Origin: a virus
DNA: 64,000 nucleotides
Virus record (IMG/VR): IMGVR_UViG_3300027790_000002
Direction: 5' to 3' (one strand)
The position numbers were made by a program, and so were the translations under genes. This document shows, piece by piece, positions 807-59,019 of the stretch. Under the pieces are notes generated by a model. It worked only from the letters and a program-made list of their open reading frames with translations. It ran no database searches and had not been told where the DNA came from. Each line of letters starts with the position of its first letter. Position 1 is the first letter of the stretch.

Positions 807-883
807 GCATCATTAGCTCAGCAGGAAAGAGCACTTGATTTTTAATCAAGGGGTCGCCGGTTCAAACCCGGTGTGACGCACCA
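807..883 (+). tRNA. tRNA-Lys(UUU)-like
   Basis: hand fold: D arm GCTC/GAGC, anticodon stem CTTGA/TCAAG loop TTTTTAA, T arm GCCGG-TTCAAAC-CCGGT, 3' GTGACGC-A-CCA; one A-C mismatch in acceptor. Confidence 0.5.
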
Positions 884-4066: not shown

Positions 4067-4624
4067 ATGAGCGACGATTTGGCGGAAACCCTCAAACCCT
4101 TACAGCAGCTGCCGGACTTGGTGGGCCGGTTGCGCGACGACGGGCTGCCGGACATCTGCAGCGAGGCGGCCAACGAAATTGAGGAATTGCAGGGCTGCTT
4201 CGATATCCGCTGGAAAGCCGATATGCGCGCCATCAAGATGTGGCAGGCGGCGCACCCCGGTAGCGAAAACATCTGGCCGGACCATGCGGAAATGGTCCTG
4301 TGGCTCATGGAACAACTGACAGGCAAAGGAGAAAGCATGGCCTTCAAACCTCTTTACGACCAAGTGCTGGTGAAACTGGAACCGAACAAAAGGGTGACCG
4401 ACGGTGGCATCATCATTCCCGAAGGGGCGCAGGAACAGCCGCAGATTGCGGAAGTGCTGGCCGTCGGGCCGGGCGCACTCAACAGCAAGGGCGTGCGCGC
4501 CCCCATGTCCGTGGCGGTCGGGGACTGGGTTCTTATCAACAAATGGGCCGGCAACGAACTGACCGTGGACGGCGTAAAGGCGCATATTCTGCGCGAGTAT
4601 GACATCATGGGCGTAATCGACTAG
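4067..4624 (+). CDS. groES: GroES (Cpn10) co-chaperonin homolog; 95-aa GroES domain 4337..4624 with in-frame 90-aa N-terminal extension
   Basis: MAFKPLYDQVLVKLEPNKRVTDGGIIIPEGAQEQPQIAEVLAVGPG...VGDWVLINKWAGNELTVDGVKAHILREYDIMGVID aligns along full GroES; strong SD AAAGGAGAAAGC before internal ATG 4337. Confidence 0.75.
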   Translation: MSDDLAETLKPLQQLPDLVGRLRDDGLPDICSEAANEIEELQGCFDIRWKADMRAIKMWQAAHPGSENIWPDHAEMVLWLMEQLTGKGESMAFKPLYDQVLVKLEPNKRVTDGGIIIPEGAQEQPQIAEVLAVGPGALNSKGVRAPMSVAVGDWVLINKWAGNELTVDGVKAHILREYDIMGVID

Positions 4625-6091: not shown

Positions 6092-6171
6092 CTTGACGCT
6101 GGGGGTTATATGTCCCATATTAGGGACATGGAACGGCGCAGGGCCGAACCGGAATTGGAGACAGACCAATG
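6091..6171 (+). promoter_or_regulatory. repeat cassette copy 1: TTGACG -35, 17-bp spacer, palindrome ATGTCCCatattaGGGACAT, conserved leader, GGAG SD, ATG
   Basis: near-identical to the 4 other copies; ends exactly at start codon 6169. Confidence 0.6.
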
Positions 6172-6320: not shown

Positions 6321-6399
6321 TTGACCTTTTTGCGCGATTGTCCCACATTAGTGACATGGAACGGCGCAGGGCCGAACCGGAATTGGAGACAGACCAATG
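6321..6399 (+). promoter_or_regulatory. repeat cassette copy 2 (palindrome half-site variant GTGACAT)
   Basis: TTGACC -35 at 6321; same leader and SD; ATG 6397. Confidence 0.6.
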
Positions 6400-7986: not shown

Positions 7987-8061
7987 CATTCCGGCGGCTA
8001 TGTCCCACATTAGGGACATGGAACGGCGCAGGGCCGAACCGAAATTGGAGACAGACCAATG
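7983..8061 (+). promoter_or_regulatory. repeat cassette copy 3
   Basis: TTGACA -35 at 7983; perfect palindrome ATGTCCCacattaGGGACAT; ATG 8059. Confidence 0.6.
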
Positions 8062-8355
8062 ACCCAGCAATTTGAAACCGGAAAAACCTACACCTGCCGC
8101 AGCGTCTGCGACGCAGACTGCGTGTGGACCTTCACCGTGGAGCGCCGCACGGCCAAAACCGTGCATTTCCGCAATCATGAAACCGGCAACGTCCACACCT
8201 GCCGCCCGGCGACGGTCGGCGGTGAGGAAGTCGCCAAGCCGCTGGGCAATTATTCCATGTGCCCGGTGCTGCGCGCCAGCAGCGAACGCGCGCCGACGGC
8301 GCAAGCCTTCAACAGCCAAGGCCGTGAACTCACGGTCACCATTCCCCAAGACTGA
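8059..8355 (+). CDS. cassette-driven ORF 3 (98 aa), Cys/His-rich
   Basis: ORF track; ATG fused to cassette copy 3; followed by 11-bp GC hairpin 8361-8389. Confidence 0.5.
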   Translation: MTQQFETGKTYTCRSVCDADCVWTFTVERRTAKTVHFRNHETGNVHTCRPATVGGEEVAKPLGNYSMCPVLRASSERAPTAQAFNSQGRELTVTIPQD

Positions 8356-8418
8356 AACCAGCGGCGCCGGGGATTGAGCCCGGCGCCGCCAGCTGCCTAA
8401 GCCATGAAAGGGTATCCC

Positions 8419-10607: not shown

Positions 10608-10719
10608 AACTTTGTTGACAAGCCAGGCGGCGCGGTTTAACCACGCCGCCTGAACGCTAGAGGCAATTATGTTTGCGCGCCTGGACATTCGAGAGATTGG
10701 CGAACCACACCCAGCAAGG

Positions 10720-10796
10720 CAGGGTGTGGCGCAGTCGGTCAGCGCGCTCGCCTCGGAAGCGAGAAGCCGCGGGTTCGAGTCCCGCCACCCTGACCA
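10720..10796 (+). tRNA. tRNA-Pro(CGG)
   Basis: acceptor CAGGGTG/CACCCTG, D GCGC/GCGC, anticodon stem CTCGC/GCGAG loop CTCGGAA, T GCGGG-TTCGAGT-CCCGC, A-CCA. Confidence 0.75.
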
Positions 10797-10833
10797 AATC
10801 CGAAAACAGACCACGACACGGCGCTAAATTTTA

Positions 10834-10911
10834 GCCGCCGTAGCTCAGTTGGTCAGAGCGCCGTCCTTGTAAGCCGGAAGTAGCGGGTTCGAATCCACGC
10901 CGGCGGCACCA
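10834..10911 (+). tRNA. tRNA-Thr(UGU), T stem with bulged A
   Basis: acceptor GCCGCCG/CGGCGGC, loop CTTGTAA, T loop TTCGAAT, A-CCA; one mismatch in anticodon stem. Confidence 0.6.
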
Positions 10912-10973
10912 AAATCCAGAAAGTCAGTACGATGAACAAGCGAAGGGAACACCGAGATATTAGCGCCTGACAA

Positions 10974-11049
10974 GGCGCGATGGTGTCATGGGTTAACATG
11001 GTTGACTGTCCATCAACAGCAACGGGTTCGAGTCCCGTTCGCGCCGCCA
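10974..11049 (+). tRNA. tRNA-Asp(GUC)
   Basis: acceptor GGCGCGA/TCGCGCC, anticodon stem GTTGA/TCAAC loop CTGTCCA, T ACGGG-TTCGAGT-CCCGT, G-CCA. Confidence 0.7.
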
Positions 11050-11064
11050 GTGCAGCAGGGCTTG

Positions 11065-11139
11065 CCCGGCGTAGCTCAGCGGTAGAGCGTCCGGCTGATA
11101 ACCGGAAGGGCGCGGGTTCAAATCCCGCCGCCGGCACCA
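11065..11139 (+). tRNA. tRNA-Ile(GAU)
   Basis: D GCTC-AGCGGTA-GAGC, anticodon stem TCCGG/CCGGA loop CTGATAA, T GCGGG-TTCAAAT-CCCGC, A-CCA; apparent C1-C72 mismatch. Confidence 0.65.
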
Positions 11140-11167
11140 GTTTTCGACAGCAACGCGCCTGAATTGT

Positions 11168-11242
11168 TGGCGCGTAGCTTAGTGGTAGAGCACTTGAATT
11201 TGACTCAAGGGGTCGGCGGTTCGAATCCTCCCGCGCCATCCA
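11168..11242 (+). tRNA. tRNA-Gln(UUG)
   Basis: U1-A72 first pair (GlnRS-type), anticodon stem CTTGA/TCAAG loop ATTTGAC, T loop TTCGAAT, T-CCA. Confidence 0.7.
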
Positions 11243-11308
11243 ACCCTTAAAGGTGAAAAAAATGAGACGACATCACGGGACTTTTCGAGAGCGCAGCGCG
11301 TAAACCGC

Positions 11309-11384
11309 GCAGCCTTCGTCTAGCGGTCTAGGATTCCGGCCTTTCAAGCCGGCGACGCCGGTTCAAATCCGGTAGGCTGCACCA
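11309..11384 (+). tRNA. tRNA-Glu(UUC)
   Basis: acceptor GCAGCCT/AGGCTGC, anticodon stem CCGGC/GCCGG loop CTTTCAA, T GCCGG-TTCAAAT-CCGGT, A-CCA. Confidence 0.75.
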
Positions 11385-11385
11385 T

Positions 11386-11462
11386 CCCGAAGTCGTCTAA
11401 CTGGTCAGGACGCTTGATTGTGGATCAGGAAATTACGGGTTCGAGTCCCTGCTTCGGGACCA
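11386..11462 (+). tRNA. tRNA-His(GUG), alphaproteobacterial type (A73, U at -1, no G-1)
   Basis: acceptor CCCGAAG/CTTCGGG, anticodon stem CTTGA/TCAGG loop TTGTGGA, T loop TTCGAGT, A-CCA. Confidence 0.65.
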
Positions 11463-11559
11463 AACAGAGAACGGTGTAAAAAATGTACGAAGTGTACGGA
11501 ACGTACAAACCGAAACGGAAACGGAACGCTTAGCGCAAGCCAGGCGGGCGTGCGCTTAT

Positions 11560-11637
11560 GGGCGCGCCGCCGTCTGGGAATGGCCACCGGCTTTTAACCG
11601 GTCACCTTGTCGGGTTCGAATCCCACCGCGCTCACCA
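11560..11637 (+). tRNA. tRNA-Lys(UUU)
   Basis: anticodon stem ACCGG/CCGGT loop CTTTTAA, T loop TTCGAAT with bulged C in 5' strand, 3' CGCGCTC-A-CCA. Confidence 0.6.
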
Positions 11638-11699
11638 CCTATTTGTTGGAGTCAACCAAATGGCTAAATTCAGGCGACGGCGACGCAACAGACTGAACT

Positions 11700-11775
11700 G
11701 TGCGCGTAGCTCAATGGACAGAGCCGCCGGCTTCTAACCGGCTCAATGCGGGTTCGACTCCTGCCGCGCACGCCA
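11700..11775 (+). tRNA. tRNA-Arg(UCU)
   Basis: acceptor GTGCGCG/CGCGCAC, D GCTC/GAGC, anticodon stem GCCGG/CCGGC loop CTTCTAA, T GCGGG-TTCGACT-CCTGC, G-CCA. Confidence 0.75.
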
Positions 11776-11778
11776 TGC

Positions 11779-11855
11779 AGCCCCGTGGCGCAATGGACTA
11801 GCGCAGCAGATTACGAATCTGAAGGTTCCGGGTTCGAGTCCCGGCGGGGCCGCCA
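11779..11855 (+). tRNA. tRNA-Arg(ACG)
   Basis: D GCGC-AATGGACTA-GCGC, loop TTACGAA, T CCGGG-TTCGAGT-CCCGG, 3' CGGGGCC-G-CCA; apparent A1-C72. Confidence 0.65.
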
Positions 11856-11862
11856 ATTTCAA

Positions 11863-11938
11863 GCGCGGCTACCTTAATGGACAGAGGGCCGGCTTCCGAA
11901 GCCGGAATGTCGGGGTTCGACTCCCCGGCCGCGCGCCA
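11863..11938 (+). tRNA. tRNA-Arg(CCG)
   Basis: acceptor GCGCGGC/GCCGCGC, anticodon stem CCGGC/GCCGG loop TTCCGAA, T CGGGG-TTCGACT-CCCCG, G-CCA. Confidence 0.75.
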
Positions 11939-11965
11939 TGTCATCATGGCATTTTCAGCGTCCTC

Positions 11966-12202
11966 TTATTTCGCGGCTTTCGGGCCGCAGGCTTTAGTGC
12001 GTTTCGCATCGTTCAGGGCCGCGTCAAGCGACAGCGCCGCGTTGCGAATGTGATCGTCGATCTCCGGCTCTGATAAATCGACGTTGCCGTTCAGGCCCCG
12101 AAGCTGTCGGGAATATTTTTCGATCCGGAGCAGCATTTTTTCAGCCGAAACATTCACTTGGCGGGTCCTTTCATTTAGCGTTCCGCCGGTCGATAGCGGC
12201 AA
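11966..12202 (-). CDS. hypothetical small protein (78 aa), last gene of minus-strand moron operon
   Basis: ORF track; ends ...KAAK* followed by conserved junction GAGGACGCTGAAAATG with no downstream ORF. Confidence 0.4.
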   Translation of the reverse strand: MPLSTGGTLNERTRQVNVSAEKMLLRIEKYSRQLRGLNGNVDLSEPEIDDHIRNAALSLDAALNDAKRTKACGPKAAK

Positions 12203-12401
12203 CCGCTTTCGCGATCCGCTTAACTAGGGAGTCACTGGCTTTGACGCGGGGGCATTTCATCGCCTCTGGCTTTTCGTTTCCAATAGGCCAGTATGCGACC
12301 TTATGAGCATCCCAAACCGGGAGCCGTCGCGAGACTGAAATAATGTGGCCGCCATGCTCAAAGCGGAGGTCGCCGCGCTTGCTCAATCCATAATCAGCCA
12401 T
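12171..12401 (-). CDS. hypothetical small protein (76 aa)
   Basis: ORF track; overlaps neighbours by a few codons. Confidence 0.4.
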   Translation of the reverse strand: MADYGLSKRGDLRFEHGGHIISVSRRLPVWDAHKVAYWPIGNEKPEAMKCPRVKASDSLVKRIAKAVAAIDRRNAK

Positions 12402-12669
12402 CGGCCGGTCCTCTTATTTCGGGTGGCGTCGGCGCGTTCATCCAATGTGTCGCAATCCCGTCGCCGCCGTCGTCTTCTGAATCGAATCTCACCGGCAAAA
12501 TGTTTCCATGGCGGTCAACCATGGCCTGACGATCTTCGTCGAACCAGCAATCAATGTAGCGCTCGCCGCGCAAATAATCTGCGCTAACGACGGCCCAGAC
12601 ATCAACCTTTTGTCGGTTTCTGGGGACGGTTGAAATCGGCTTCCATACGCTCACTTCGCGGGTCCTCAA
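12394..12669 (-). CDS. hypothetical small protein, DUF551-like (WKPIS...)
   Basis: ORF track; probable TTG/GTG start after GAGGAC SD. Confidence 0.4.
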   Translation of the reverse strand: MRTREVSVWKPISTVPRNRQKVDVWAVVSADYLRGERYIDCWFDEDRQAMVDRHGNILPVRFDSEDDGGDGIATHWMNAPTPPEIRGPADG

Positions 12670-12920
12670 AATACGTCGTCTTCGAGCGGTTCATATTCGG
12701 GAGGATCTGCCAAGATCGCCGCTTCGATCTTCGTCCATTCGTCGTCGGTGAGGCTTTCGCCTTCGGGCAGTCCGTAAACCGTTTTTTCAAATTCGATCTC
12801 GACCGGATCGCCGGGCATCCAGCAACCGCCCGCGAAGTAGTCTCCGCCGCCGCCATTTAGCCGATAGCAGACCATGACTTCTGTCCCGTCGGCGCGCGTA
12901 AAGTCATGATTGAATGACAT
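12666..12920 (-). CDS. hypothetical small protein (84 aa)
   Basis: ATG 12920 preceded by conserved TAATAAGAGGACGCTGAAAAATG junction. Confidence 0.45.
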   Translation of the reverse strand: MSFNHDFTRADGTEVMVCYRLNGGGGDYFAGGCWMPGDPVEIEFEKTVYGLPEGESLTDDEWTKIEAAILADPPEYEPLEDDVF

Positions 12921-12937
12921 TTTTCAGCGTCCTCTTA

Positions 12938-13234
12938 TTACGCGGCCTTGTCGGCCTGTTTTGGTTTCGCATCTGGAAACCAGCTTTCGAGATCGTCGAG
13001 CGCCCATTTCAGGCCGGTGATCTTACCGCTCACGCTGGATCGGCGAGCCGCGTCAAAGCTGCACTCTGGAATTTGATTCAGGGCTTGCGTCTGATTGTCG
13101 ATGAGGTTGCGCAGCCTGTCGCCAAGACGACCGGCGCGCTCGGCAATCTCGGCTTTGAACTGCGCCGTCACTGCCGCCTTCGCTTGGCGCTCGATGTCGC
13201 GCTCGCGGGGCGTATAGAGAGATTCATCAAGCAT
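12938..13234 (-). CDS. hypothetical small protein (98 aa)
   Basis: ATG 13234 preceded by TAAGGACGCTGAAAATG junction. Confidence 0.45.
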   Translation of the reverse strand: MLDESLYTPRERDIERQAKAAVTAQFKAEIAERAGRLGDRLRNLIDNQTQALNQIPECSFDAARRSSVSGKITGLKWALDDLESWFPDAKPKQADKAA

Positions 13235-13304
13235 TTTCAGCGTCCTTAGATTTGCAGCCGCGCGACGCGGCCGTCGGGGTGACGTTCATTTTATTGGTCC
13301 TTTC

Positions 13305-13884
13305 CTCACGCCTTCCGGCCGAGCTTTCGCGCGGCGGCCTTCCGGCTGATTGTTGCTTCCGAGACTTTCCACTTGCGCGCCATCTGCGGGATGCTGATCG
13401 CGTCGTCTTTCCAGTCCCGATCAAACTGCGCCCATGCGGCGCGATCAAGGTCGGCGAGGGCCTTCGGGCGCCCGCCGGGGTTTTTCTTGTGCTTCTCCGA
13501 GCCGCGCGCGTTCGCCGTCTGCGCCTGGCGCTTGTCGCGCGTCAGCGCCTTCGCAATCTTGGCATGGCTTTCGTCGGCGGTGAAATTCTCGGCCATATCA
13601 ATCACATAAACGCTGGCGCGCTGGTCCGTCACGGCGGCGAGAACGCTGAACAAGTCGCCCGCATTCGCCGCAAGGTGGAGCGGTGACAACACGCACAATT
13701 CGTCGCCGGGCCGCAGGATGGCGATCAGGTCGGCGCGTTCCGGGCGCGGGTCTTCGTCCGGGCGCGGTTTCCGCTTCCAGACCTTCTCCGCGATGATCTT
13801 GGCCGCGCCGACATCGGCGAGGGCTTCGCGCTGTTCCTCGACGGAAGCGCCCGCCTTGATCTTGGCCACATATCCAAATCGCAT
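13305..13884 (-). CDS. serine-recombinase (resolvase/invertase) family protein, N-terminal catalytic motif degenerate, C-terminal HTH
   Basis: MRFGY... start; GDELCVLSPLHL...DLFSVLAAV resembles resolvase core; ISIPQMARKWKVSEATISRKAAARKLG is the resolvase-type HTH; canonical RVST-xx-Q serine not evident. Confidence 0.5.
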
Positions 13885-14070
13885 AATTCACGCCTGCAAA
13901 ACTAGAACAGCTATTGACTTTTGACAAGAGGTTTTGATAAGAGGTTAAGAAGCGGGGTTTTGACGCTTATGCGCCGATTCCGCCGATGTCTTCAGGAACT
14001 ACCGCGCAGGGGTGCGCAAGCGCGGCGCCGCCCGCAAGGATAACCAAGGCGACACCCCACAGGAGGCAGG

Positions 14071-14280
14071 ATGTATCTCGAAGTTGACCATCTCCACACG
14101 AACCGCGAGGGCATGGGGTTTTGTTGTCCCCATTGCCTGCAAATGGGTTTTGATGGCCGCGCTGACAGTGACGAATGGCAAGAGGTCAAGTGCTCAGAAT
14201 GCGGTGAGCCTTTTGCAATTCGCGGCGTCGTCACCGTCGAAGGGCAGAGCGGTGTCATTAACGACCGCATAGAAGATTAG
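14071..14280 (+). CDS. small zinc-ribbon-like protein (CCPHC...CSEC)
   Basis: ORF track; SD AGGAGG. Confidence 0.35.
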   Translation: MYLEVDHLHTNREGMGFCCPHCLQMGFDGRADSDEWQEVKCSECGEPFAIRGVVTVEGQSGVINDRIED

Positions 14281-14389
14281 TCACGAGAGGCACCTTAAAG
14301 TCTTTTGTTGACGGCGCCGCGCTTTGGCCGTAGGTCGGCGCCATGACCCCAGCCGCTTCCCATAACCGATATCGCCGCCCGTAGGTTCC

Positions 14390-14476
14390 GGGCGAGTATG
14401 CAAGCGGTCGAAGCGAGCGGGCTGTAACCCCGCACATTGGAAACGTCGGGGGTTCGAATCCACCCCTCGCCCACCA
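14390..14476 (+). tRNA. tRNA-Tyr(GUA), class II (long variable arm)
   Basis: acceptor GGGCGAG/CTCGCCC, anticodon stem GCGGG/CCCGC loop CTGTAAC, T loop TTCGAAT (3' strand CC-A-CCC bulge), A-CCA; 87 nt. Confidence 0.65.
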
Positions 14477-14662
14477 TCTGCAAATTCAGGATATTTTATT
14501 CAAATCTTATTCACGGTTGACAGTGTCAACGGCGCGCGCCTAGATGGTCCTTGATTTGCACCGCCGCAGGAAGTCCGCCTGCGGAATGACACGGCCAACG
14601 GGAGTAAGGACACATGAAAAACGGTCTGAACATCGCGATATTATGGCGACTCTCGAATTTTG

Positions 14663-14739
14663 GCGCGTGTAGCTCAGTCGGTAGAGCCGCCTCCTCATAA
14701 GAGGTAGGGTCGCAAGTTCAAGTCTTGCCACGCGCACCA
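14663..14739 (+). tRNA. tRNA-Met(CAU), elongator or Ile2-type (no GGG/CCC in anticodon stem)
   Basis: acceptor GCGCGTG/CACGCGC, D GCTC/GAGC, loop CTCATAA, T GCAAG-TTCAAGT-CTTGC, A-CCA. Confidence 0.7.
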
Positions 14740-14741
14740 AT

Positions 14742-14816
14742 AGCGGTGTCCGTCTAATGGTAAGACAGCAGTCTCCAAAACTGAAAATGTGGGTTCGATT
14801 CCCGCCGCCGCTGCCA
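14742..14816 (+). tRNA. tRNA-Trp(CCA)
   Basis: loop CTCCAAA, T GTGGG-TTCGATT-CCCGC, 3' CGCCGCT-G-CCA. Confidence 0.65.
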
Positions 14817-14819
14817 AAT

Positions 14820-14900
14820 CCCCCCGTGGGCAAATTTTGGTAAAGTCACCGGTCTTAAAAACCGGCAGCGTTGCGGGTTCGAGTCCCGCCGGGGGGACCA
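14820..14900 (+). tRNA. tRNA-Leu(UAA)-like, atypical: class-II-type D arm but short (7 nt) variable loop
   Basis: acceptor CCCCCCG/CGGGGGG, D GGC-AAATTTTGGTAAA-GTC, anticodon stem CCGGT/ACCGG loop CTTAAAA, T GCGGG-TTCGAGT-CCCGC, A73-CCA; 81 nt. Confidence 0.55.
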
Positions 14901-14907
14901 ACCACAA

Positions 14908-14984
14908 GGGCTCGTAGCTCAGCCTGGGAGAGCAACGGTTTTGCACGCCGCAGGTCGTCAGTTCAAATCTGACCGGGTCCACCA
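14908..14984 (+). tRNA. tRNA-Ala(UGC)
   Basis: G3-U70 wobble identity pair present; GCTCAGCCTGGGAGAGC D arm; loop TTTGCAC; T GTCAG-TTCAAAT-CTGAC; A-CCA. Confidence 0.75.
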
Positions 14985-14989
14985 GCAAC

Positions 14990-15069
14990 GCCTCGCTGGG
15001 CAAATTTTGGTAAAGTCGTCTGATTTAGGATCAGAAGTTTTCCCGGTTCGAGTCCGGGGCGGGGCACCA
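14990..15069 (+). tRNA. tRNA-Leu(UAG)-like, atypical (same D arm as 14820 tRNA, 6-nt variable loop)
   Basis: D GGC-AAATTTTGGTAAA-GTC identical 22-nt to other Leu-like; anticodon stem TCTGA/TCAGA loop TTTAGGA; T CCCGG-TTCGAGT-CCGGG; A-CCA. Confidence 0.55.
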
Positions 15070-15145
15070 CAAAACAGCGCGGCAAGATCCCGCGCAATGA
15101 AAGGTTAGAACGATGCCAGACGATTCAAGTTCGTCCAGCGAGAAA

Positions 15146-15231
15146 GGAAGGGTGGCAGAGCGGTAATGCAGCGGCTTGCTAAGCCGTAGGGCCTCATGGT
15201 TCCGCCGGTTCGACTCCGGCCCCTTCCGCCA
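15146..15231 (+). tRNA. tRNA-Ser(GCU), class II
   Basis: acceptor GGAAGGG/CCCTTCC, loop TTGCTAA, long variable arm, T GCCGG-TTCGACT-CCGGC, G-CCA. Confidence 0.7.
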
Positions 15232-15235
15232 ATTT

Positions 15236-15321
15236 GGAGGGCGCCGCTCGATGGTAGGCAACCGGTCCCGAAAACCGGGGTGGCGTTCGCGTCAGTGGTT
15301 CGACTCCGCCGCCCTCCGCCA
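15236..15321 (+). tRNA. tRNA-Ser(CGA), class II, apparent C33
   Basis: acceptor GGAGGGC/GCCCTCC, anticodon stem CCGGT/ACCGG loop CCCGAAA (cf E. coli serU CTCGAAA), T loop TTCGACT, G-CCA. Confidence 0.6.
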
Positions 15322-15396
15322 AATTCAGAACCTTTTGAGGTCGGCTGGCCAACGGGCTGCAGACTGAAACGCCCGGGCCTTCCTCAAAGGGTTTGC

Positions 15397-15471
15397 CGCG
15401 CGGTAGCTCAGCGGTAGAGCGCCGGTTTGAAGGGCCGGGCGTCGTGGGTTCAATCCCCACCCGCGCAACCA
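15397..15471 (+). tRNA. tRNA-Phe(GAA)
   Basis: D GCTC-AGCGGTA-GAGC, loop TTGAAGG, T GTGGG-TTCAATC-CCCAC, 3' CCGCGCA-A-CCA; apparent C1-A72. Confidence 0.65.
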
Positions 15472-15514
15472 TGTTAATTTTCGCCCCCTCATTTGAGGGC
15501 GAAAAAATGAACAC

Positions 15515-15590
15515 AGGGGCGTAGCTCAGTGCGAAGAGCGGCTGTTTTACACACAGCGGGTCGCGGGTTCGATTCCTGCCGCCCCCACCA
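15515..15590 (+). tRNA. tRNA-Val(UAC)
   Basis: anticodon stem GCTGT/ACAGC loop TTTACAC, T GCGGG-TTCGATT-CCTGC, 3' CGCCCCC-A-CCA. Confidence 0.7.
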
Positions 15591-15595
15591 GTTTC

Positions 15596-15668
15596 GCGGG
15601 CTTCCTCCAGGTGAGGTAAGGGCCTTCCAAGCCCCCACGGTCGGGTTCGAGTCCCACAGTCCGCTCCA
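15596..15668 (+). tRNA. tRNA-Gly(UCC)
   Basis: U73 discriminator and TCCA end typical of Gly; loop CTTCCAA; T loop TTCGAGT with bulged C. Confidence 0.65.
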
Positions 15669-15673
15669 GTTTT

Positions 15674-15750
15674 TGGGATAGGGCCCCGCTGGTAGGGGCG
15701 CATGGCTGTTAACCATGTCGCTGCAGGTTCGAGTCCTGCTATCCCAGCCA
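15674..15750 (+). tRNA. tRNA-Asn(GUU)
   Basis: acceptor TGGGATA/TATCCCA, anticodon stem CATGG/CCATG loop CTGTTAA, T GCAGG-TTCGAGT-CCTGC, G-CCA. Confidence 0.7.
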
Positions 15751-15751
15751 G

Positions 15752-15825
15752 GCGCGGGTGTCCGAGTGGCAAGGAGCCGGATTGCAACCCCGGTTAGAGC
15801 GGTTCGATTCCGCTCCCGCGCTCCA
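15752..15825 (+). tRNA. tRNA-Cys(GCA)
   Basis: acceptor GCGCGGG/CCCGCGC, loop TTGCAAC, T AGCGG-TTCGATT-CCGCT, U73-CCA as in Cys. Confidence 0.7.
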
Positions 15826-16065: not shown

Positions 16066-16515
16066 GCAATGACGCAGAAACCCTTGCTGGCGGCCTATCT
16101 CGCCGCCGCCGATTTTGAGCATGCTTTCAGGGCGTTGCTGCTGCAGCACGCACAGCACCTTTTCCCGAATATCAGCATCGTTATAACGCTGACGGTTTAC
16201 GCGATGGCCAACGGCGTAAAGACGCCGGCGGACCTCAAACGCTGGCGCGCCTGCACCGGCGCCAACGCCAATTATTCCTGTATGCAGTCCGTCAAAGCCG
16301 GCTTTATCACGATGTGCGACAACCCGGATGATGCCCGCTCAAAGCGGCTGATTTTGACCGAACAGGGGCATCTGCTGGCTGACCATTTGCGGGGCGTAAC
16401 GGACAAGCAATTCACGATGCTGGAAAAATTCACGCCGGCGATGGCGCATTTGCCTGACATCACCAAGCTGCTGCGGGAAATGGTCGATTACAAAATGCCG
16501 ATGGAATGGCGCTAG
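16066..16515 (+). CDS. putative MarR-like winged-helix regulator
   Basis: internal ATG of ORF 16018..16515; SKRLILTEQGHLLADHLRGVTDKQF resembles MarR wHTH. Confidence 0.4.
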   Translation, partial: AMTQKPLLAAYLAAADFEHAFRALLLQHAQHLFPNISIVITLTVYAMANGVKTPADLKRWRACTGANANYSCMQSVKAGFITMCDNPDDARSKRLILTEQGHLLADHLRGVTDKQFTMLEKFTPAMAHLPDITKLLREMVDYKMPMEWR

Positions 16516-17897
16516 TTAAACACGACGTCGCTGAACGGCAACGCGATTTTCTGCAGCTGGGCCGCCTTCCATTCCATGCTGACTCCACCGCCATATTGCG
16601 GCCGTTTGACCGCGTGGCCCATGAACTCCGCCCGTAATTCTGCGTCCAATCCTGCCTCCTTCATGCGGTCTTCAAAGGAATGGCGCAGCGAATAGACCAC
16701 ATGGGCGCCGGACGGCATGAGGCCGCGGTCACGCATTTCTGACAGCAGCAGGTCGGACAGTTCCTTTTCGTTTTCCCGCCAGGCGGGAAACCCTTGCGGG
16801 TTCCGGCGCATCGCCGCCAGCGATACGCCGACCAGCGGGACGCGGCGCGCCGAGCTCCGCGTCTTGATTTCCCGGCCTTCGCGCGGGCGAATGTCCAGAT
16901 AAGGGGCCCAACCGTCCGGTTTTTCGCCGCCGGCGTCCAGTTTTATGGCCTCACTGTTCAGATTGGCGACTTCGCCGGGCCGCGCGCCGGTTTCAATCAG
17001 AATTAACAGGATGTCGCGGGCCTGTGCGTCCATGCCGGCAAGCGCCCCGGGCGCAAGGATCCTGTCGCGAATCCATGCGGTCGGAAAGGGCGGGCGGCGC
17101 TGCTGCTGGCCGCCCTTGAATTTCAGCCCGTCAAACGGGTTGCCGCCGTCATAATCCGGCGCGGTCCATGCCATATATTCGCGGAACAGCTGGCGCATGT
17201 TGCCGAGATCCCGCGCCGCAGTCGCCGGTGTGATTTGCCCGGCGTCGATACGCGCTTGCAGCCAGCGGTGGAACTGGCGGCCGTCGGTGCGTGTGACCGC
17301 GCCCAGGCCTTTGTCCTCGCCTATCGCTTTCAGGAAATTGTTAACCGCCCGCGTCTTCACCTGCCGCCATTTGCGGTATTGTTTCGGGCTTTTTGAGCGG
17401 CGTTGCCCCGCCTCGATTTCTTCCAGATACAGCCGAAACGCCGACCGCACGCTATCGGAAAGCGCCGGCGCGCCGCCCAAGAGCGCCTCCACCATATCCG
17501 CTGGCGGCAGCCCGTCACGGGGGCTGGTGGCGTGGGCGCGCAGGGCGTCCAGCCGCGCCAGCAGCCCCTCGAGCGGGCCGGCGGCGATGTCTTCGGCGTC
17601 CTGATACTCAAACCCCAGCGCCAGCGCCCGCTGCGCCGCCGCCTCGCGCGAGGCCCGGGCGATTGCCGCAGGGCCTGCGTCCAGACCGGCCCAGTAGGCG
17701 TCGTCGGCGGCTTCCAGTTCGTCGCGCATGGTGCGGGCGCGCGTAACGTCGGCGGTGCCAAGCCCGCAGCGAATGAGCGGCGCGCGTTCGTCCAGCAGCG
17801 CCAGGCGCGCCGGCACGCGACGCCTGTAGAACCAGCGGCCTTTTCGGCGCTGCAAATATCGGTTGGGGTCCGTCATCACCGCCGGCGGCTTCGCCAT
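16512..17897 (-). CDS. int: tyrosine recombinase / phage integrase
   Basis: C-terminal VYSLRHSFEDRM...MGHAVK...Y matches R-HxxR-Y catalytic box; convergent with MarR-like gene. Confidence 0.85.
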   Translation of the reverse strand: MAKPPAVMTDPNRYLQRRKGRWFYRRRVPARLALLDERAPLIRCGLGTADVTRARTMRDELEAADDAYWAGLDAGPAAIARASREAAAQRALALGFEYQDAEDIAAGPLEGLLARLDALRAHATSPRDGLPPADMVEALLGGAPALSDSVRSAFRLYLEEIEAGQRRSKSPKQYRKWRQVKTRAVNNFLKAIGEDKGLGAVTRTDGRQFHRWLQARIDAGQITPATAARDLGNMRQLFREYMAWTAPDYDGGNPFDGLKFKGGQQQRRPPFPTAWIRDRILAPGALAGMDAQARDILLILIETGARPGEVANLNSEAIKLDAGGEKPDGWAPYLDIRPREGREIKTRSSARRVPLVGVSLAAMRRNPQGFPAWRENEKELSDLLLSEMRDRGLMPSGAHVVYSLRHSFEDRMKEAGLDAELRAEFMGHAVKRPQYGGGVSMEWKAAQLQKIALPFSDVVFN

Positions 17898-25831: not shown

Positions 25832-25910
25832 TTGACCTTTCCGGCTAAATGTCCCACATTAGGGACATGGAACGGCGCAGGGCCGAACCGAAATTGGAGA
25901 CAGACCAATG
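25832..25910 (+). promoter_or_regulatory. repeat cassette copy 4
   Basis: TTGACC -35, perfect palindrome, ATG 25908; divergent from tmRNA gene. Confidence 0.6.
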
Positions 25911-27414: not shown

Positions 27415-27491
27415 TGGGTGCGGGAGGGGGATTTGAACCCCCGACCTCTTGGTTATGAGCCAAGCGCGCTACCGGACTGCGCCATCCACGC
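27415..27491 (-). tRNA. tRNA-Met(CAU)-like
   Basis: minus strand: D GCGC-AGTCCGGTA-GCGC, anticodon stem CTTGG/CCAAG loop CTCATAA, T GGGGG-TTCAAAT-CCCCC, 3' TCCCGCA-C-CCA; acceptor needs one bulged U. Confidence 0.55.
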
Positions 27492-27634
27492 ATCAACGGC
27501 GCCGGGCATGGCAGACCGGGTGCGCAATGTCAAGTTTGCGAAAAGCGCCGAACGCGCTTAGCGGTCGATTGTCCGGCGTGACATTGTAGCGTAGCGGTCG
27601 GCGGGCGTTGCTTATCATCGCCGACCCGCTGCAC

Positions 27635-36696: not shown

Positions 36697-39600
36697 TACA
36701 CAGCCTGCGATTCTTGCTGCTGGAAGTATTTATCGAAGCGACGGCGCAGCAGCGTGATTTCAGTTTCCATGCGGGTGGTCGCGCGCGCCTGGTCGCGTAT
36801 AGCTTCCGACAGCACGGAAATCTGGGTCGATTGTGCGGAACGGTTGTCGTTGGCGATTTGCTGGACCGCCAGCGCCGTGGACGCCTGCTGGTCGTTTGTC
36901 AGGTCCGGCGTCGAAATTGACGGCGCCGGGGCGCGCAACAGCGTTTCAATCTGCGCCTGCTGGCGCAGTTCTGTCTCCCGCTGAATGGCCGCCATGAGCG
37001 CCGACACATCGCCGCCGGCAAGGTCGCTGGTGTTGCCGGTGTTGAAATTAAACAGACGCGCCAGCGCGTTTGCATTGCTTTCCAGCTGCGCTTCCTGCAG
37101 CGCGACCAGTTCGGTGGTCAGGGCTTTGACCAGTTCGTTGCCCTCGCCCAGCAGGGCGTTTTGGTCGCGCAGATAGTCGAGCGCCGGCGCTTGGTTGTCG
37201 AGCGCGGCGAGGATGTTTTGCAGCGTTCCTTCGGACGCTTCGGCCGCCGCAGCGCGGGCGTTCGCGGCCTCTTCAAAACTCAGGCCTGCAGCCTTAGCCG
37301 CTTCTAGGCCGCTGGTGATGTTTTCAAAAATCGGTGCGAATTGCGAGCCTGTGCCCAGCACTTCGCTGGCAAGCTGAATGGTGTCCTCACCAAGCTGGCC
37401 AAGGCGGCGCCCGGCTTCGGTATCGCCGCCAAGAAACGCCTGCAGGGTGCTTTGGAACTCGCCTTGCGCGGCCCGCAATTGCTCAGCCGGCGTTTCCGGC
37501 GAAAAGCGGCGGCGAATGCTGTCGAGCGATGCGCCTATGCCTTCGCGGATTTGCCTAAATTCTTCGGCTGCCTCGCGTTCAGCCGCCGCGTGTTCGGCAA
37601 TGGCGTCGATATCGGATTGCAGAGCCTGGCTAAGTTCAAAACCAACCACGGCAATACGGCCGCCGAAATCTTCGATAAGGCCCAGCGCGTCGCCAAGCTT
37701 CACCTTGTCATCGTCAGACAGGCCCGTGAGGAAATTTCTGCGTTCCGCATTGTTGAGGCGTTCGACCCCCGCGACATTCGCGCCCAGCGTTTGCGCGGTT
37801 TGCACGCGCAACTGCTGTTGTTCCAACAAGGCATTAAACTGCGCCAGCGCCGGGTTTGTCGCCTGCAGCAGCTGCTGGGCGACTTGCGTGTTGAAATCCC
37901 CGGCCAGCTGTTGGCGAGCATCCTCCACCTGCCGGACCAACAGCGTGGGGTCGGCGCCAAGTTCCGCGATTTGGTCGGCGTAGCGCTGCAGGGCTTCGGC
38001 AGCGGCGGCCAACGCTTCCGGCGTGCCGGTCGCGGCCTCCACAAAGGCTTTCCATTCCGCCGTGTTGAGCGCTACGGCTTTCGAGAGCCGGTCCTGTTCG
38101 TCGGCGGCGTCCTTGCTGACCGCACGCACCTGTTCAAAGCGGTCGCCCTGCGCCTGAATTAAGTCGAGCGCCGCCGCCACCTGCGGTTTTTCGAGTTCCA
38201 GCAATTGGCGGTCTAGGCTTTTATCGAGCTCAGACGCCAGCGACTGGCGCGCGCTTTCGAGCGAAGCCGCCAACGCGCCGGCGCTTACACCGAACTCGCC
38301 AGATTTGTCGCTCAACGCTTGCAAGGCTTCGGCGGCGGCCTTGAAGGCTTCCGGCGATTCGCTGGCTTCCTGTACGAATTGCTGCCATTCGGCGCTGTTC
38401 AGTTCCGACACGGCGGCAAGCCGAGCCTGCGCGGCGGCTTCGTTGCTGTCGCCGGCGGCTTTCAGGGCCGCGTTGATGTCTTTCGCGTCCTGCAGCCGGG
38501 CGGTCTGCTGTTTTACCAACTCTTGCGCCGCCGCTTCGAGCGGCGAGGTCAGTTCCAGCAGCTGGCGTTCGATGCTGCGGTCAAACGCGCTGCCAACAGC
38601 TTGAATTGCTTTGCGTTCCTGCGCAGCCAAGCCTGACAGCGAACCTGTCAGCTGGCCTGCGCCGGCGCGCGCGCGGTCGAAAGCGTCGGCGACCGTGTCC
38701 AGCGCCTGGCGGAACTCAGAAACAGGCGCCGCGTCAAAGTCCAGCACTGATTTGAGGCTGCCGAGCGTTTCGACGATGTCTTCAATAGGCGCGTCGGCGG
38801 CGGCCAGCGCCTGCGCCAACGCGGCAAGGTCTTTGTTGCCGCCTTTGATGTCCGCGCCGGTAAGCGCCAGCTTGATGCCAGCCTCCACTGCGGCGGCGGC
38901 GCCGGCTTCGGTGTTCTCAAAGTTCTGGCGATTGGCGATCGTTCCGCCCACGCCTTGGTTGCCGATTTGGATGCCATCGCGGCTGCCGGCGGCCACGTTG
39001 ATAAGGTCATCGCGAAACGCCGTGGACGCCCTGTTGCGTAATTCGCCGCCGATAATGTCCAGAACGCTGCCGACGCCGGACGAAATATTTTCGCCCACGG
39101 CCTTGGAGATTTCCAGATTTTGCAGGGATTCCGCCGACTGGTCTTTGGTCCCGGTGCCAAGAACGCGCCCCGTAGTCGGGTCGATGACAATCTGCCCGAC
39201 CTTGTTTGACGGTTTCCCACCAACCAGTGCGCCAAAAAGCTTGCCGAGCGTGGAGCCAACCACACTGCCCAGCACCGTGCCGACGCCCGGAATAATCGAC
39301 CCAAGCGTGCCGCCGATGGTCCCGCCGATGGTCGAGCCCGTGTTGCCCTTGTTTCCAAAGCCCAGCAGGCTGCCCAGCAGATTGACGCCCTGCGACACAG
39401 CAAAGCCGGTGCCCGCGCCGGCAAAACCTTTACCCACCAGCGCCTGACCTTGGCCGCCAAGGCCGAAGGTTTTCCCGACATTAACGCCAAGATTGGCAAG
39501 GCTGCGCTGGAAGCCTTGAAATGTCTGTTTAATGGCGCCGAGCGGTCCGACCAGCCCTGCTGCCGTCGCTGCAGCATTGGACCCGCCCGCCGGCAGGGCG

Positions 39601-58942: not shown

Positions 58943-59019
58943 TGGTCTGTCTCCAATTCCGGTTCGGCCCTGCGCCGTTCCATGTCCCTAATGTGGGACA
59001 TTTGCCGGGAATTGTCAAG
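58940..59019 (-). promoter_or_regulatory. repeat cassette copy 5 (minus strand)
   Basis: reverse complement gives TTGACA-N17-palindrome-leader-GGAG-ATG identical to plus-strand copies. Confidence 0.6.

Follow-up and report, generated by a model that had tools for sequence, protein, structure and literature searches.

Two tRNA gene arrays and a permuted tmRNA gene in a compact, integrase-bearing phage genome, with predicted coverage of all 20 amino acids

tRNA genes of the window

The virus record IMGVR_UViG_3300027790_000002 of IMG/VR, a genome assembled from metagenomes, was analyzed over a stretch of 64,000 bp (the window), which carries two arrays of transfer RNA (tRNA) genes, two outlying tRNA genes and a gene for a permuted transfer-messenger RNA (tmRNA) (Table 1). 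ARAGORN with default settings called 25 tRNA genes and the one permuted tmRNA gene in the window. The default calls included all 11 genes of array 1 (10720-11938), 12 of the 13 genes claimed for array 2 (14390-15825) and both genes outside the arrays; the remaining gene, for tRNA-Gly, was called with the -ps option. Every coordinate and anticodon of the original prediction, which had been made by eye from the sequence, was reproduced in this way. Even with the intervening 2.45-kb cassette counted in, the arrays hold 24 tRNA genes in 5,106 bp (10720-15825), a density of 4.7 per kb.

The calls were also scored with covariance models. At the gathering score of the Rfam tRNA model RF00005 (29 bits), 22 tRNAs passed in a scan of the whole window and tRNA-Tyr was added in a local scan, so that 23 of the 26 genes passed. 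An encoded CCA at the 3' end and an intact 7-nt anticodon loop were present in all 26 genes, and the T-loop motif GGTTCRAHTCY occurred 16 times against 0.27 expected by chance. Single-sequence folding by minimum free energy (MFE) was uninformative: a cloverleaf was obtained for one of seven tRNAs (the tRNA-Lys at 11560) and a significant z-score for one tRNA-Leu only. A custom covariance model was dropped, as the MAFFT alignment had set several tRNAs out of register. One extra low-threshold ARAGORN call, Leu-CAA at 8337-8413 (-), was rejected; it had neither CCA nor a proper T loop.

The set holds 24 distinct anticodons, UUU and CAU being present twice each. The default calls accounted for 19 amino acids, and glycine was covered by the non-canonical gene at 15596-15668 only. 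Methionine is covered by the initiator-like tRNA at 27415 (-) and possibly also by the CAU tRNA at 14663. The four-codon boxes are served mostly by tRNAs with U34 (Thr, Ala, Val, Gly and Leu-CUN), Pro and Ser-UCN by tRNAs with C34 only, and the anticodons ACG, CCG and UCU together suffice for the six Arg codons. The predicted coverage of all 20 amino acids was thus confirmed, with Gly resting on comparative evidence and not on a default tool call.

Table 1. Positions of the tRNA genes, the tmRNA gene and neighbouring features in the window
Feature	Position	Strand	Call or evidence
tRNA-Lys(UUU), isolated copy	807..883	+	ARAGORN default; Rfam tRNA 57.3 bits; encoded CCA
Putative promoter, array 1: TTGACA, 16 nt, TTAACC	10615..10642	+	read from sequence
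tRNA-Pro(CGG)	10720..10796	+	ARAGORN default; Rfam 71.5 bits
tRNA-Thr(UGU), irregular T arm	10834..10911	+	ARAGORN default; Rfam 56.8 bits
tRNA-Asp(GUC)	10974..11049	+	ARAGORN default; Rfam 52.9 bits
tRNA-Ile(GAU)	11065..11139	+	ARAGORN default; Rfam 73.5 bits
tRNA-Gln(UUG)	11168..11242	+	ARAGORN default; Rfam 61.7 bits
tRNA-Glu(UUC)	11309..11384	+	ARAGORN default; Rfam 61.8 bits
tRNA-His(GUG)	11386..11462	+	ARAGORN default; Rfam 47.7 bits
tRNA-Lys(UUU), second copy	11560..11637	+	ARAGORN default; 27.3 bits to tRNA-Sec model
tRNA-Arg(UCU)	11700..11775	+	ARAGORN default; Rfam 61.2 bits
tRNA-Arg(ACG)	11779..11855	+	ARAGORN default; Rfam 56.7 bits
tRNA-Arg(CCG)	11863..11938	+	ARAGORN default; Rfam 60.5 bits
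Six-ORF block between arrays	11966..13884	-	five small ORFs without family match and a 192-residue serine recombinase/invertase
Putative promoter upstream of tRNA-Tyr: TTGACG, 16 nt, GTAGGT	14308..14335	+	read from sequence
tRNA-Tyr(GUA), 14-nt variable region	14390..14476	+	ARAGORN default; Rfam 30.5 bits, local scan
Putative promoter, rest of array 2: TTGACA, 17 nt, CTAGAT	14517..14545	+	pattern match
CAU tRNA, elongator type	14663..14739	+	ARAGORN default; Rfam 63.4 bits
tRNA-Trp(CCA)	14742..14816	+	ARAGORN default; Rfam 55.2 bits
tRNA-Leu(UAA), short arm	14820..14900	+	ARAGORN default; Rfam 53.9 bits
tRNA-Ala(UGC)	14908..14984	+	ARAGORN default; Rfam 58.2 bits
tRNA-Leu(UAG), short arm	14990..15069	+	ARAGORN default; Rfam 48.3 bits
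tRNA-Ser(GCU), class II	15146..15231	+	ARAGORN default; Rfam 60 bits
tRNA-Ser(CGA), class II	15236..15321	+	ARAGORN default; 32.6 bits to tRNA-Sec model
tRNA-Phe(GAA)	15397..15471	+	ARAGORN default; Rfam 58.3 bits
tRNA-Val(UAC)	15515..15590	+	ARAGORN default; Rfam 59.8 bits
tRNA-Gly(UCC), non-canonical	15596..15668	+	aragorn -ps only; 21.9 bits to tRNA-Sec model; Cp1R7A-A1 homologue
tRNA-Asn(GUU)	15674..15750	+	ARAGORN default; Rfam 53.9 bits
tRNA-Cys(GCA)	15752..15825	+	ARAGORN default; Rfam 52.8 bits
Tyrosine integrase	16512..17876	-	PHROG integrase, DUF6538; 0.7 kb from array 2 end
Permuted two-piece tmRNA, tag ANDNGNFVEQRLAA	25393..25806	-	ARAGORN; Rfam
CAU tRNA, initiator-like	27415..27492	-	ARAGORN default; Rfam 60.7 bits
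ORF, open reading frame.

A non-canonical tRNA-Gly

Two features of the set stand out as most unusual: a tRNA-Gly hidden from default tools, and a pair of tRNA-Leu genes in which the variable arm is short. The tRNA-Gly(UCC) gene was missed by ARAGORN at default and appeared only at the relaxed -ps setting. Hand reading showed a perfect 7-bp acceptor stem (G1-C72, C2-G71, G3-C70), U73 and an encoded CCA, together with a canonical anticodon loop (CU-UCC-AA) and a canonical T loop. Its deviations are a gap of only 1 nt separating the acceptor stem from the D stem, D and anticodon stems of 4 bp each, a D loop of 5 nt and a T stem of three G-C pairs only.

BLAST found a sole full-length homologue, in the Mesorhizobium phage Cp1R7A-A1 (82% identity, E = 1e-10), at 37168-37239 of MT188704.1 (5039-5110 of locus L293, our extract of that genome). 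This copy is unannotated and was missed by ARAGORN even with -ps; as in the window, a gap of a few nucleotides divides it from the CCA end of the tRNA before it, and unlike the window copy it has a 4-bp T stem and the T-loop TTTGATT. When the two copies were compared, 97.5% of the pair cells were paired and three pairs were changed on both sides, two in the anticodon stem (G:C to C:G and G:C to A:U) and one in the D stem (C:G to U:G). A joint change, to A:U, was also seen at the D-loop and T-loop positions that correspond to G19:C56. Sliding the 3' partners by 1-3 columns left no compensatory pairs; the shuffle control is weak with two sequences only, and 60 of 500 shuffles reached the observed value. 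The pairing pattern is, on this comparison, the one expected of selection on a structured RNA. Both copies contain all of the bacterial glycine identity elements (U73, G1-C72, C2-G71, C35 and C36; PMC9976931).

We accepted the predicted tRNA-Gly at 15596-15668 as real, and Gly as covered by a non-canonical tRNA, because the homologue carries compensatory changes. The claim that every amino acid has at least one tRNA is borne out on this basis, 19 amino acids by default calls and the twentieth by covariation and identity elements. A conserved tRNA-Gly that default tRNA finders and GenBank annotation both missed turns 19/20 into 20/20 here, and phage Cp1R7A-A1 gains one more gene.

tRNA-Leu genes without a long variable arm

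Neither tRNA-Leu gene has the long variable arm with its own stem that marks a bacterial class II tRNA-Leu. The tRNA-Leu(UAA) gene is 81 nt long, with a 7-nt variable loop, a 3-bp D stem and an 11-nt D loop, and the tRNA-Leu(UAG) gene is 80 nt long with a 6-nt variable loop. Both have A73, and they share an identical 20-nt D-arm stretch. The tRNA-Leu genes of Hyphomicrobiales genomes were ordinary class II genes of 83-86 nt.

The short-arm tRNA-Leu is common to the window phage and phage vB_EliS-L02. The tRNA-Leu(UAG) gene was 80% identical to the tRNA-Leu(CAG) gene of vB_EliS-L02, with seven compensatory pairs in the acceptor and anticodon stems; no difference was seen in the D stem, the T arm or the greater part of the D and variable loops, and 100% of the pair cells were paired. 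The observed values were reached in only 4 of 500 shuffles. A 17-mer from the Leu D arm had 46 matches in IMG/VR, none of them inside a tRNA.

The long arm of tRNA-Leu is described as universal except in animal mitochondria, and E. coli leucyl-tRNA synthetase needs A73 and tertiary contacts between the D loop and the T loop, not the long arm (PMC9976931). Charging of the short-arm phage tRNA-Leu by the host is therefore plausible, by analogy with the E. coli enzyme. The genes of the window phage and of vB_EliS-L02 form an exception to the long-arm rule.

Other deviant tRNAs

The tRNA-His gene has no encoded G-1 (T stands at -1), A73, C1-G72 and a 9-nt D loop. An alphaproteobacterial class of tRNA-His without G-1 has A73, G1.U72, in which U72 is the major identity element, and a 9-nt D loop (PMC3064791). 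The phage tRNA-His would be only partly of this class, having C1-G72 instead of G1.U72. The tRNA-His genes of Brucellaceae that lie beside related integrases are also without G-1 and have A73.

The second tRNA-Lys(UUU) gene (11560) has C8 and a 7-nt variable loop in addition to a short T stem, and its 3' two-thirds were 81-84% identical to annotated tRNA-Lys genes of phages Phosso and XacN1. The Lys and Leu genes of phage Cp1R7A-A1 are also of unusual length: it has 88-nt tRNA-Lys genes with long variable regions (L293 7643-7730 and 7964-8051) and 76-77-nt tRNA-Leu genes (L293 4790-4946), so that class I and class II lengths appear swapped for Lys and Leu in that phage.

Both tRNAs with a CAU anticodon had originally been labelled Met. 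The gene at 27415 (-) was 76.7% identical to E. coli metY, its closest E. coli match (median of 4 matching places per genome), and has U1-A72, G2-C71, C3-G70 and G4-C69, the last three pairs being common to the initiator. Of the features that mark initiators, a C1xA72 mismatch and three consecutive G-C pairs in the anticodon stem, it has U1-A72 in place of the mismatch and two of the three G-C pairs. We regard it from these positions as initiator-like and not as a proven initiator. The label was too firm for the gene at 14663, which is of the elongator type (G1-C72, G27.U43) and could be either Met or Ile2 (with lysidine); BLAST of this gene against E. coli genomes gave a weak tRNA-Arg match only.

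A permuted tmRNA

The tmRNA gene scored 95.5 bits with the tmRNA_permuted model (cut-off 47) and 78 bits with the alpha_tmRNA model (cut-off 50), so that both of these models (RF01849 and RF04321) matched above gathering. It was aligned with the tmRNA genes of phages Lacusarx and vB_EliS-L02; all three are permuted and their tags end in RLAA (ANDNDVVTAEVRLAA in Lacusarx, VNDNDVVVARDEVRLAA in vB_EliS-L02 and ANDNGNFVEQRLAA in the window phage). The nucleotide stretch GCGCCTCGCGGCGTAA is identical in the window phage and Lacusarx and one base off in vB_EliS-L02. This likeness suggests, at the level of sequence, a lineage of tmRNA genes among phages. BLAST of the tmRNA against the phage collection found no close relative and gave matches of about 40 nt only.

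The phage genome, its integrase and its likely host

The same sequence was found by exact-protein look-up in JGI, ENA and Logan assemblies, as contigs of 73,816-73,887 bp. We concluded that the window is 64,000 bp of a circular tailed-phage genome of 73,746 bp, because the contigs have differing start points, the mapped coordinates of the ENA contig imply a 141-bp overlap of its two ends, and one recovered locus joins the window end to the window start. The remaining 9,746 bp contain no tRNA gene, so the whole genome has 26 tRNA genes and one tmRNA gene. The recovered contigs were 100% identical to the window over the compared stretches of 10-21 kb and are thus uninformative on population variation.

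That the tRNA genes are phage-borne, as had been claimed, was upheld by this circular genome and its gene content. The window encodes a large terminase, a portal protein, a ClpP-type protease, a lysozyme, an HK97-fold capsid protein, a 2056-residue tape measure protein, the tyrosine integrase and a small serine recombinase, as well as a GroES-like protein and DUF5131 and DUF1643 proteins. The arrays are flanked by phage genes on both sides, and no host genes, housekeeping genes included, were seen among the genome ORFs scanned. No close DNA relative of the phage was found in the INPHARED collection, and the large terminase was about 40% identical to its best matches, from Pseudomonas and Moraxella phages. 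The 210-residue protein encoded directly upstream of array 1 matched only itself among 5.8 billion proteins. The 185-residue protein at 4067-4624 (+) has a Cpn10/GroES domain in its C-terminal half (Pfam E = 3.6e-26) and would be a phage co-chaperonin with an N-terminal extension.

The 9,746 bp outside the window (locus L113) encode GapR-like and GcrA-like proteins, a replication initiator, methyltransferases and RusA. The GapR-like DNA-binding protein and the GcrA-like protein lie at L113 2369-4027, and two DNA methyltransferases of the phage at L113 5824-8327.

The integrase gene is one mark of a temperate phage, and the phage is probably temperate. Relatives of the integrase, at 37-51% identity and mostly from Hyphomicrobiales, lie nearly always 160-250 bp downstream of a tRNA-Leu, tRNA-Gly or tRNA-His gene. 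The 54 GTDB loci with a related integrase were almost all from Mesorhizobium, Devosia, Pelagibacterium, Brucella/Ochrobactrum, Bradyrhizobium, Martelella, Henriciella and similar genera. No integrated copy of the phage was found in GTDB genomes, IMG/VR or JGI contigs, and the region upstream of the integrase gene showed neither an attP core nor a fragment of a tRNA. The host is probably an alphaproteobacterium, in or near Hyphomicrobiales, because the phage has GapR-like and GcrA-like proteins, a two-piece tmRNA of the alpha type, these integrase relatives and a tRNA-His without G-1 and with A73. GapR and GcrA are alphaproteobacterial chromosome and cell-cycle factors.

Spacers, cassette and repeats around the arrays

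The putative promoter within array 2 (14517..14545) resembles the rhizobial sigma-70 consensus. The cassette between the arrays includes the serine recombinase/invertase gene at 13306-13884 (-), which matched Pfam Resolvase and PHROG DNA invertase. This recombinase alone recurs, at 77% identity, in an otherwise unrelated IMG/VR contig that has nothing else in common with the window, and a GTDB scan with it gave no match. A single ancestral array may have been split by a mobile cassette, the recombinase block of 1.9 kb.

Some array spacers carry further motifs. An ATG after a Shine-Dalgarno-like motif was present in six of the eight long array spacers, at 11262, 11483, 11660, 14614, 15113 and 15507 (+); the shuffle mean was 1.6, and six were reached in 11 of 2000 shuffles. 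The spacer ORFs have 5-28 codons, and four extend into the following tRNA gene. Strong hairpins were seen in two array 2 spacers, 15322-15396 and 15472-15514 (+), one being aaccttttgagg...cctcaaagggtt and the other cgccccctcatttgagggcg flanked by T and A runs; these may serve in processing or termination.

One repeat is present five times, at 6111-6128, 6339-6356, 8001-8018 and 25850-25867 (+) and at 58983-59000 (-), each inside a 60-100 bp repeat. It holds the palindrome TGTCCC-N6-GGGACA, after which all five copies have a conserved leader ending in GGAGACAGACCAATG. The flank upstream of the palindrome was captured for three of the aligned copies, and two of these have GCTTGACA there. It looks like a repeated unit of promoter, operator and ribosome-binding site for several operons. 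One copy stands back-to-back with the tmRNA gene, and the tRNA arrays have none.

Codon reading by the phage tRNA set

Codons were counted in 48 phage ORFs (14,957 codons). Under strict wobble the phage set reads 45 of the 61 sense codons, or 74.8% of phage usage; GGC, GGU, GCC, GCU, ACC, ACU, GUC, GUU, CUC, CUU, CCA, CCC, CCU, UCA, UCC and UCU are left unread. GGC makes up 68% of the phage Gly codons, and GGC and GGU together 77%. Coverage would be much higher on the assumption that U34 tRNAs read all four codons of a box. Genes for synthetases, tRNA modification or CCA addition were not seen in the ORFs scanned. The extensive translational autonomy that had been read into the tRNA set is not supported by these counts; the set supplements host translation and does not replace it, and host synthetases, processing enzymes and ribosomes are still needed.

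Phage codon usage was compared with that of proxies, namely chromosomal ORFs flanking related integrases in Hyphomicrobiales and Hyphomonadaceae, which are small, GC3-filtered sets (Table 2; GC3, GC content at third codon positions). Phage usage leans to AAA, GAA, CAA, UUG, ACA, AUU and UUU. The enriched codons AAA, GAA, CAA, UUG and ACA are those of the phage U34 tRNAs, the AAA-reading tRNA being present in two copies, and the depleted codons CUC and GUC are ones that the set cannot read. The pattern fits codon matching and the effect is modest. Of the suggestion that the tRNAs compensate for codon usage, the match between enriched codons and U34 tRNAs stands, and support from proxy host genes is modest and indirect.

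Table 2. Codon shares in the phage and in the proxy gene sets
Measure	Phage	Proxies
AAA share of Lys	0.55	0.24-0.27 (0.51 in Henriciella/Marinicaulis proxy)
GAA share of Glu	0.71	0.38-0.66
CAA share of Gln	0.32	0.09-0.28
UUG share of Leu	0.14	0.05-0.10
ACA share of Thr	0.14	0.05-0.12
CUC share of Leu	0.12	0.26-0.33
GUC share of Val	0.34	0.42-0.51
Fraction of codons readable by phage set	0.748	0.69-0.74

A proposed phage decoding module and its alternatives

Our reading is that the arrays, the tRNA genes outside them and the tmRNA gene form a phage decoding module, a self-supplied tRNA pool, and we give it a probability of about 0.5. The arrays would be transcribed from their own sigma-70-like promoters as multi-tRNA precursors, in which many spacers are only 1-7 nt long, and host RNase P and 3' processing enzymes would cut these precursors. 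CCA addition would not be needed, because CCA is encoded in every gene. Host synthetases would then charge the phage tRNAs, and the identity elements (the Gly set, A73 in tRNA-Leu, and A73 without G-1 in tRNA-His) fit charging by host enzymes. The phage would gain a supply of its own, with at least one tRNA per amino acid, an initiator-like tRNA and a ribosome-rescue RNA, and its mRNAs could be translated fast even with a host tRNA pool that is ill-matched or running down.

Several points weigh against this reading. Three genes, those for Lys (11560), Ser-CGA (15236) and Gly (15596), fell below the Rfam thresholds; their best matches were to the tRNA-Sec model, whose cut-off is 47 bits. The tRNA-His, the same tRNA-Lys and the tRNA-Gly have T stems of 3 bp. 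A strict sigma-70 scan called none of the proposed array promoters. A quarter of the phage codons, the commonest Gly, Ala and Thr codons among them, are unread under strict wobble, and the codon comparison relies on small, GC3-filtered proxies. Twelve of the tRNAs serve two-codon boxes, where the host would already hold the same anticodon, and such tRNAs fit the role of a spare pool better than the supplementation of rare codons. Transcription, processing, charging and benefit to the phage are inferred from sequence.

The strongest alternative is a counter-defence or insurance pool, which we consider possible and rank below the decoding module. The phage tRNAs would replace host tRNAs that are cleaved or depleted in infection, by anticodon nucleases (of the PrrC, PARIS-AriB, retron, Septu or VapC type) or by host shut-off. 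With a similarly tentative standing, the deviant shapes would be poor nuclease substrates and the tmRNA would rescue stalled ribosomes. One tRNA for nearly each amino acid, even where the host has the same single anticodon, does look like a replacement pool, and tRNA-Lys(UUU), a classic nuclease target, is present in two copies. The short-arm tRNA-Leu, the tRNA-Gly with its shifted D arm and the 3-bp T stems are unlike host tRNAs, the Leu and Gly types are kept between phages, and the tmRNA belongs to the module. Precedents for counter-defence are published (PMC10264068, PMC11464382, PMC11555353, PMC13096335). However, nothing unusual is apparent in the anticodon loops, the analysis identified neither a nuclease target nor a resistance mutation, and the codon fit is not predicted by counter-defence alone. 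Counter-defence and the decoding module are not exclusive, and both could hold. A bolder extension, to which we lend little credence, is that the phage tRNAs, instead of being copied from the host, form a deviant pool (the short-arm tRNA-Leu, the tRNA-Gly with its shifted D arm and the tRNAs with 3-bp T stems among them) traded among unrelated alphaproteobacterial phages, and that they are kept because they are charged by the host yet unseen by tRNA nucleases or modification-dependent defences. If this were true, phage tRNA repertoires would be systematically under-counted.

Dependence of lysogeny on a tRNA, as described in mycobacteriophages (PMC10865867), is improbable as the explanation of the arrays. 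The host tRNA gene would be left broken when the integrase recombines with it, and a phage tRNA of matching isotype would make up for the loss; at least one phage tRNA would then be carried for lysogeny and not for lytic growth. The integrase relatives do adjoin tRNA-Leu, tRNA-Gly and tRNA-His genes, and the phage carries all three isotypes, with array 2 lying 0.7 kb from the integrase gene. However, such dependence could explain one tRNA and not 26; neither an attP core or tRNA fragment nor an integrated copy was recovered, and the flanking host tRNA was called complete by ARAGORN in the relatives.

Least probable by far is that the genes are non-functional, as host tRNA operons beside a prophage, an assembly chimera or neutral, decaying pseudogenes: three or four genes are under covariance-model thresholds, MFE gave no cloverleaf for six of the seven tRNAs folded and the 100% identity of all recovered contigs leaves selection untraceable from population variation, but several assemblies and samples gave one circle opened at different points, phage genes flank the arrays on both sides and no host gene was detected, CCA and anticodon loop are intact in every gene, the weakest candidates show compensatory substitutions relative to other phages, and the tRNA-Leu, tRNA-Gly(UCC) and tRNA-His of Hyphomicrobiales genomes are clearly unlike the phage copies. 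With a circular genome, encoded CCA ends and covariation, an origin of the genes from a host chromosome, by assembly artefact or through pseudogene decay is in effect excluded.

A decoding module remains the preferred reading. Codon matching, counter-defence and support of lysogeny predict different outcomes for this probably temperate phage, and a 73.7-kb genome with an integrase, 26 tRNAs, an initiator-like tRNA and a tmRNA is a convenient system for asking why phages carry tRNAs.

Comparison with known phages

The survey of Morgado and Vicente (2019) defined a tRNA cluster by at least 15 tRNA genes and at least 2 per kb, a definition that takes in the present arrays, and found viral clusters in 228 genomes of 72-617 kb, only eight clusters having all 20 isotypes, and an integrase in 23 of 226 phages (PMC6409571). 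Complete 20-isotype sets and integrase-bearing examples are thus already present there, in groups that include phiCbK-like Caulobacter phages and Mycobacterium phages with a serine integrase. The window phage stands at the bottom of the genome-size range and in both minorities, that with 20 isotypes and that with an integrase; compared with the surveyed clusters, it also carries the initiator-like tRNA and the permuted tmRNA. The alphaproteobacterial precedents quoted in the Lacusarx paper, phiCbK-like phages included, cover 13-18 amino acids (PMC5648845). The set had been called unusual even for tRNA-rich phages, and these two sources agree.

Prophages and islands with a related integrase (37-51% identity; Mesorhizobium, Devosia, Pelagibacterium, Brucella and others) belong to hosts that are almost all Alphaproteobacteria. 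Unlike the window phage, more than 130 loci with a related integrase had no array, and had no tRNA of their own or a single tRNA-Met besides the adjoining host tRNA. Arrays were absent from all of more than 230 loci sharing the integrase, a 594-residue protein or the DUF5131 protein, which had 0-3 tRNAs each. IMG/VR scans with the recombinase, the large terminase, the integrase, the 594-residue protein and the DUF5131 protein gave about 107 loci in which ARAGORN found no arrays, and an integrase scan of JGI metagenome contigs and GTDB gave 84 loci that were run through ARAGORN, again with no arrays.

Phage Cp1R7A-A1 (MT188704, Mesorhizobium) has a 131 kb genome with 26 ARAGORN-called tRNAs in about 7 kb, and no tmRNA was called in the stretch examined. 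The closest likeness in layout, an array followed by a tmRNA, was found in Lacusarx (KY629563, Sphingobium) and vB_EliS-L02 (OL955261, Erythrobacter), which are siphoviruses of Alphaproteobacteria. Lacusarx has 130 kb, 24 tRNAs on one strand for 18 amino acids and a permuted tmRNA, and vB_EliS-L02 has 150 kb, 32 tRNAs, likewise on one strand, and a permuted tmRNA. Lacusarx was virulent when tested and is without a tRNA for Met and Tyr (PMC5648845). Its array also begins with Pro(CGG) and has a tyrosine recombinase gene nearby. The tRNA-Trp of the window phage was 79% identical to that of vB_EliS-L02 and its tRNA-Phe 80% identical to that of Lacusarx. However, the gene order of the arrays and the structural genes are unlike those of Lacusarx and vB_EliS-L02, and these two phages have tadA and rtcB near their arrays, to which nothing alike was found in the window phage. 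A tRNA array with a permuted tmRNA is therefore already known in alphaproteobacterial phages, and the phage described here is a compact, integrase-bearing new example.

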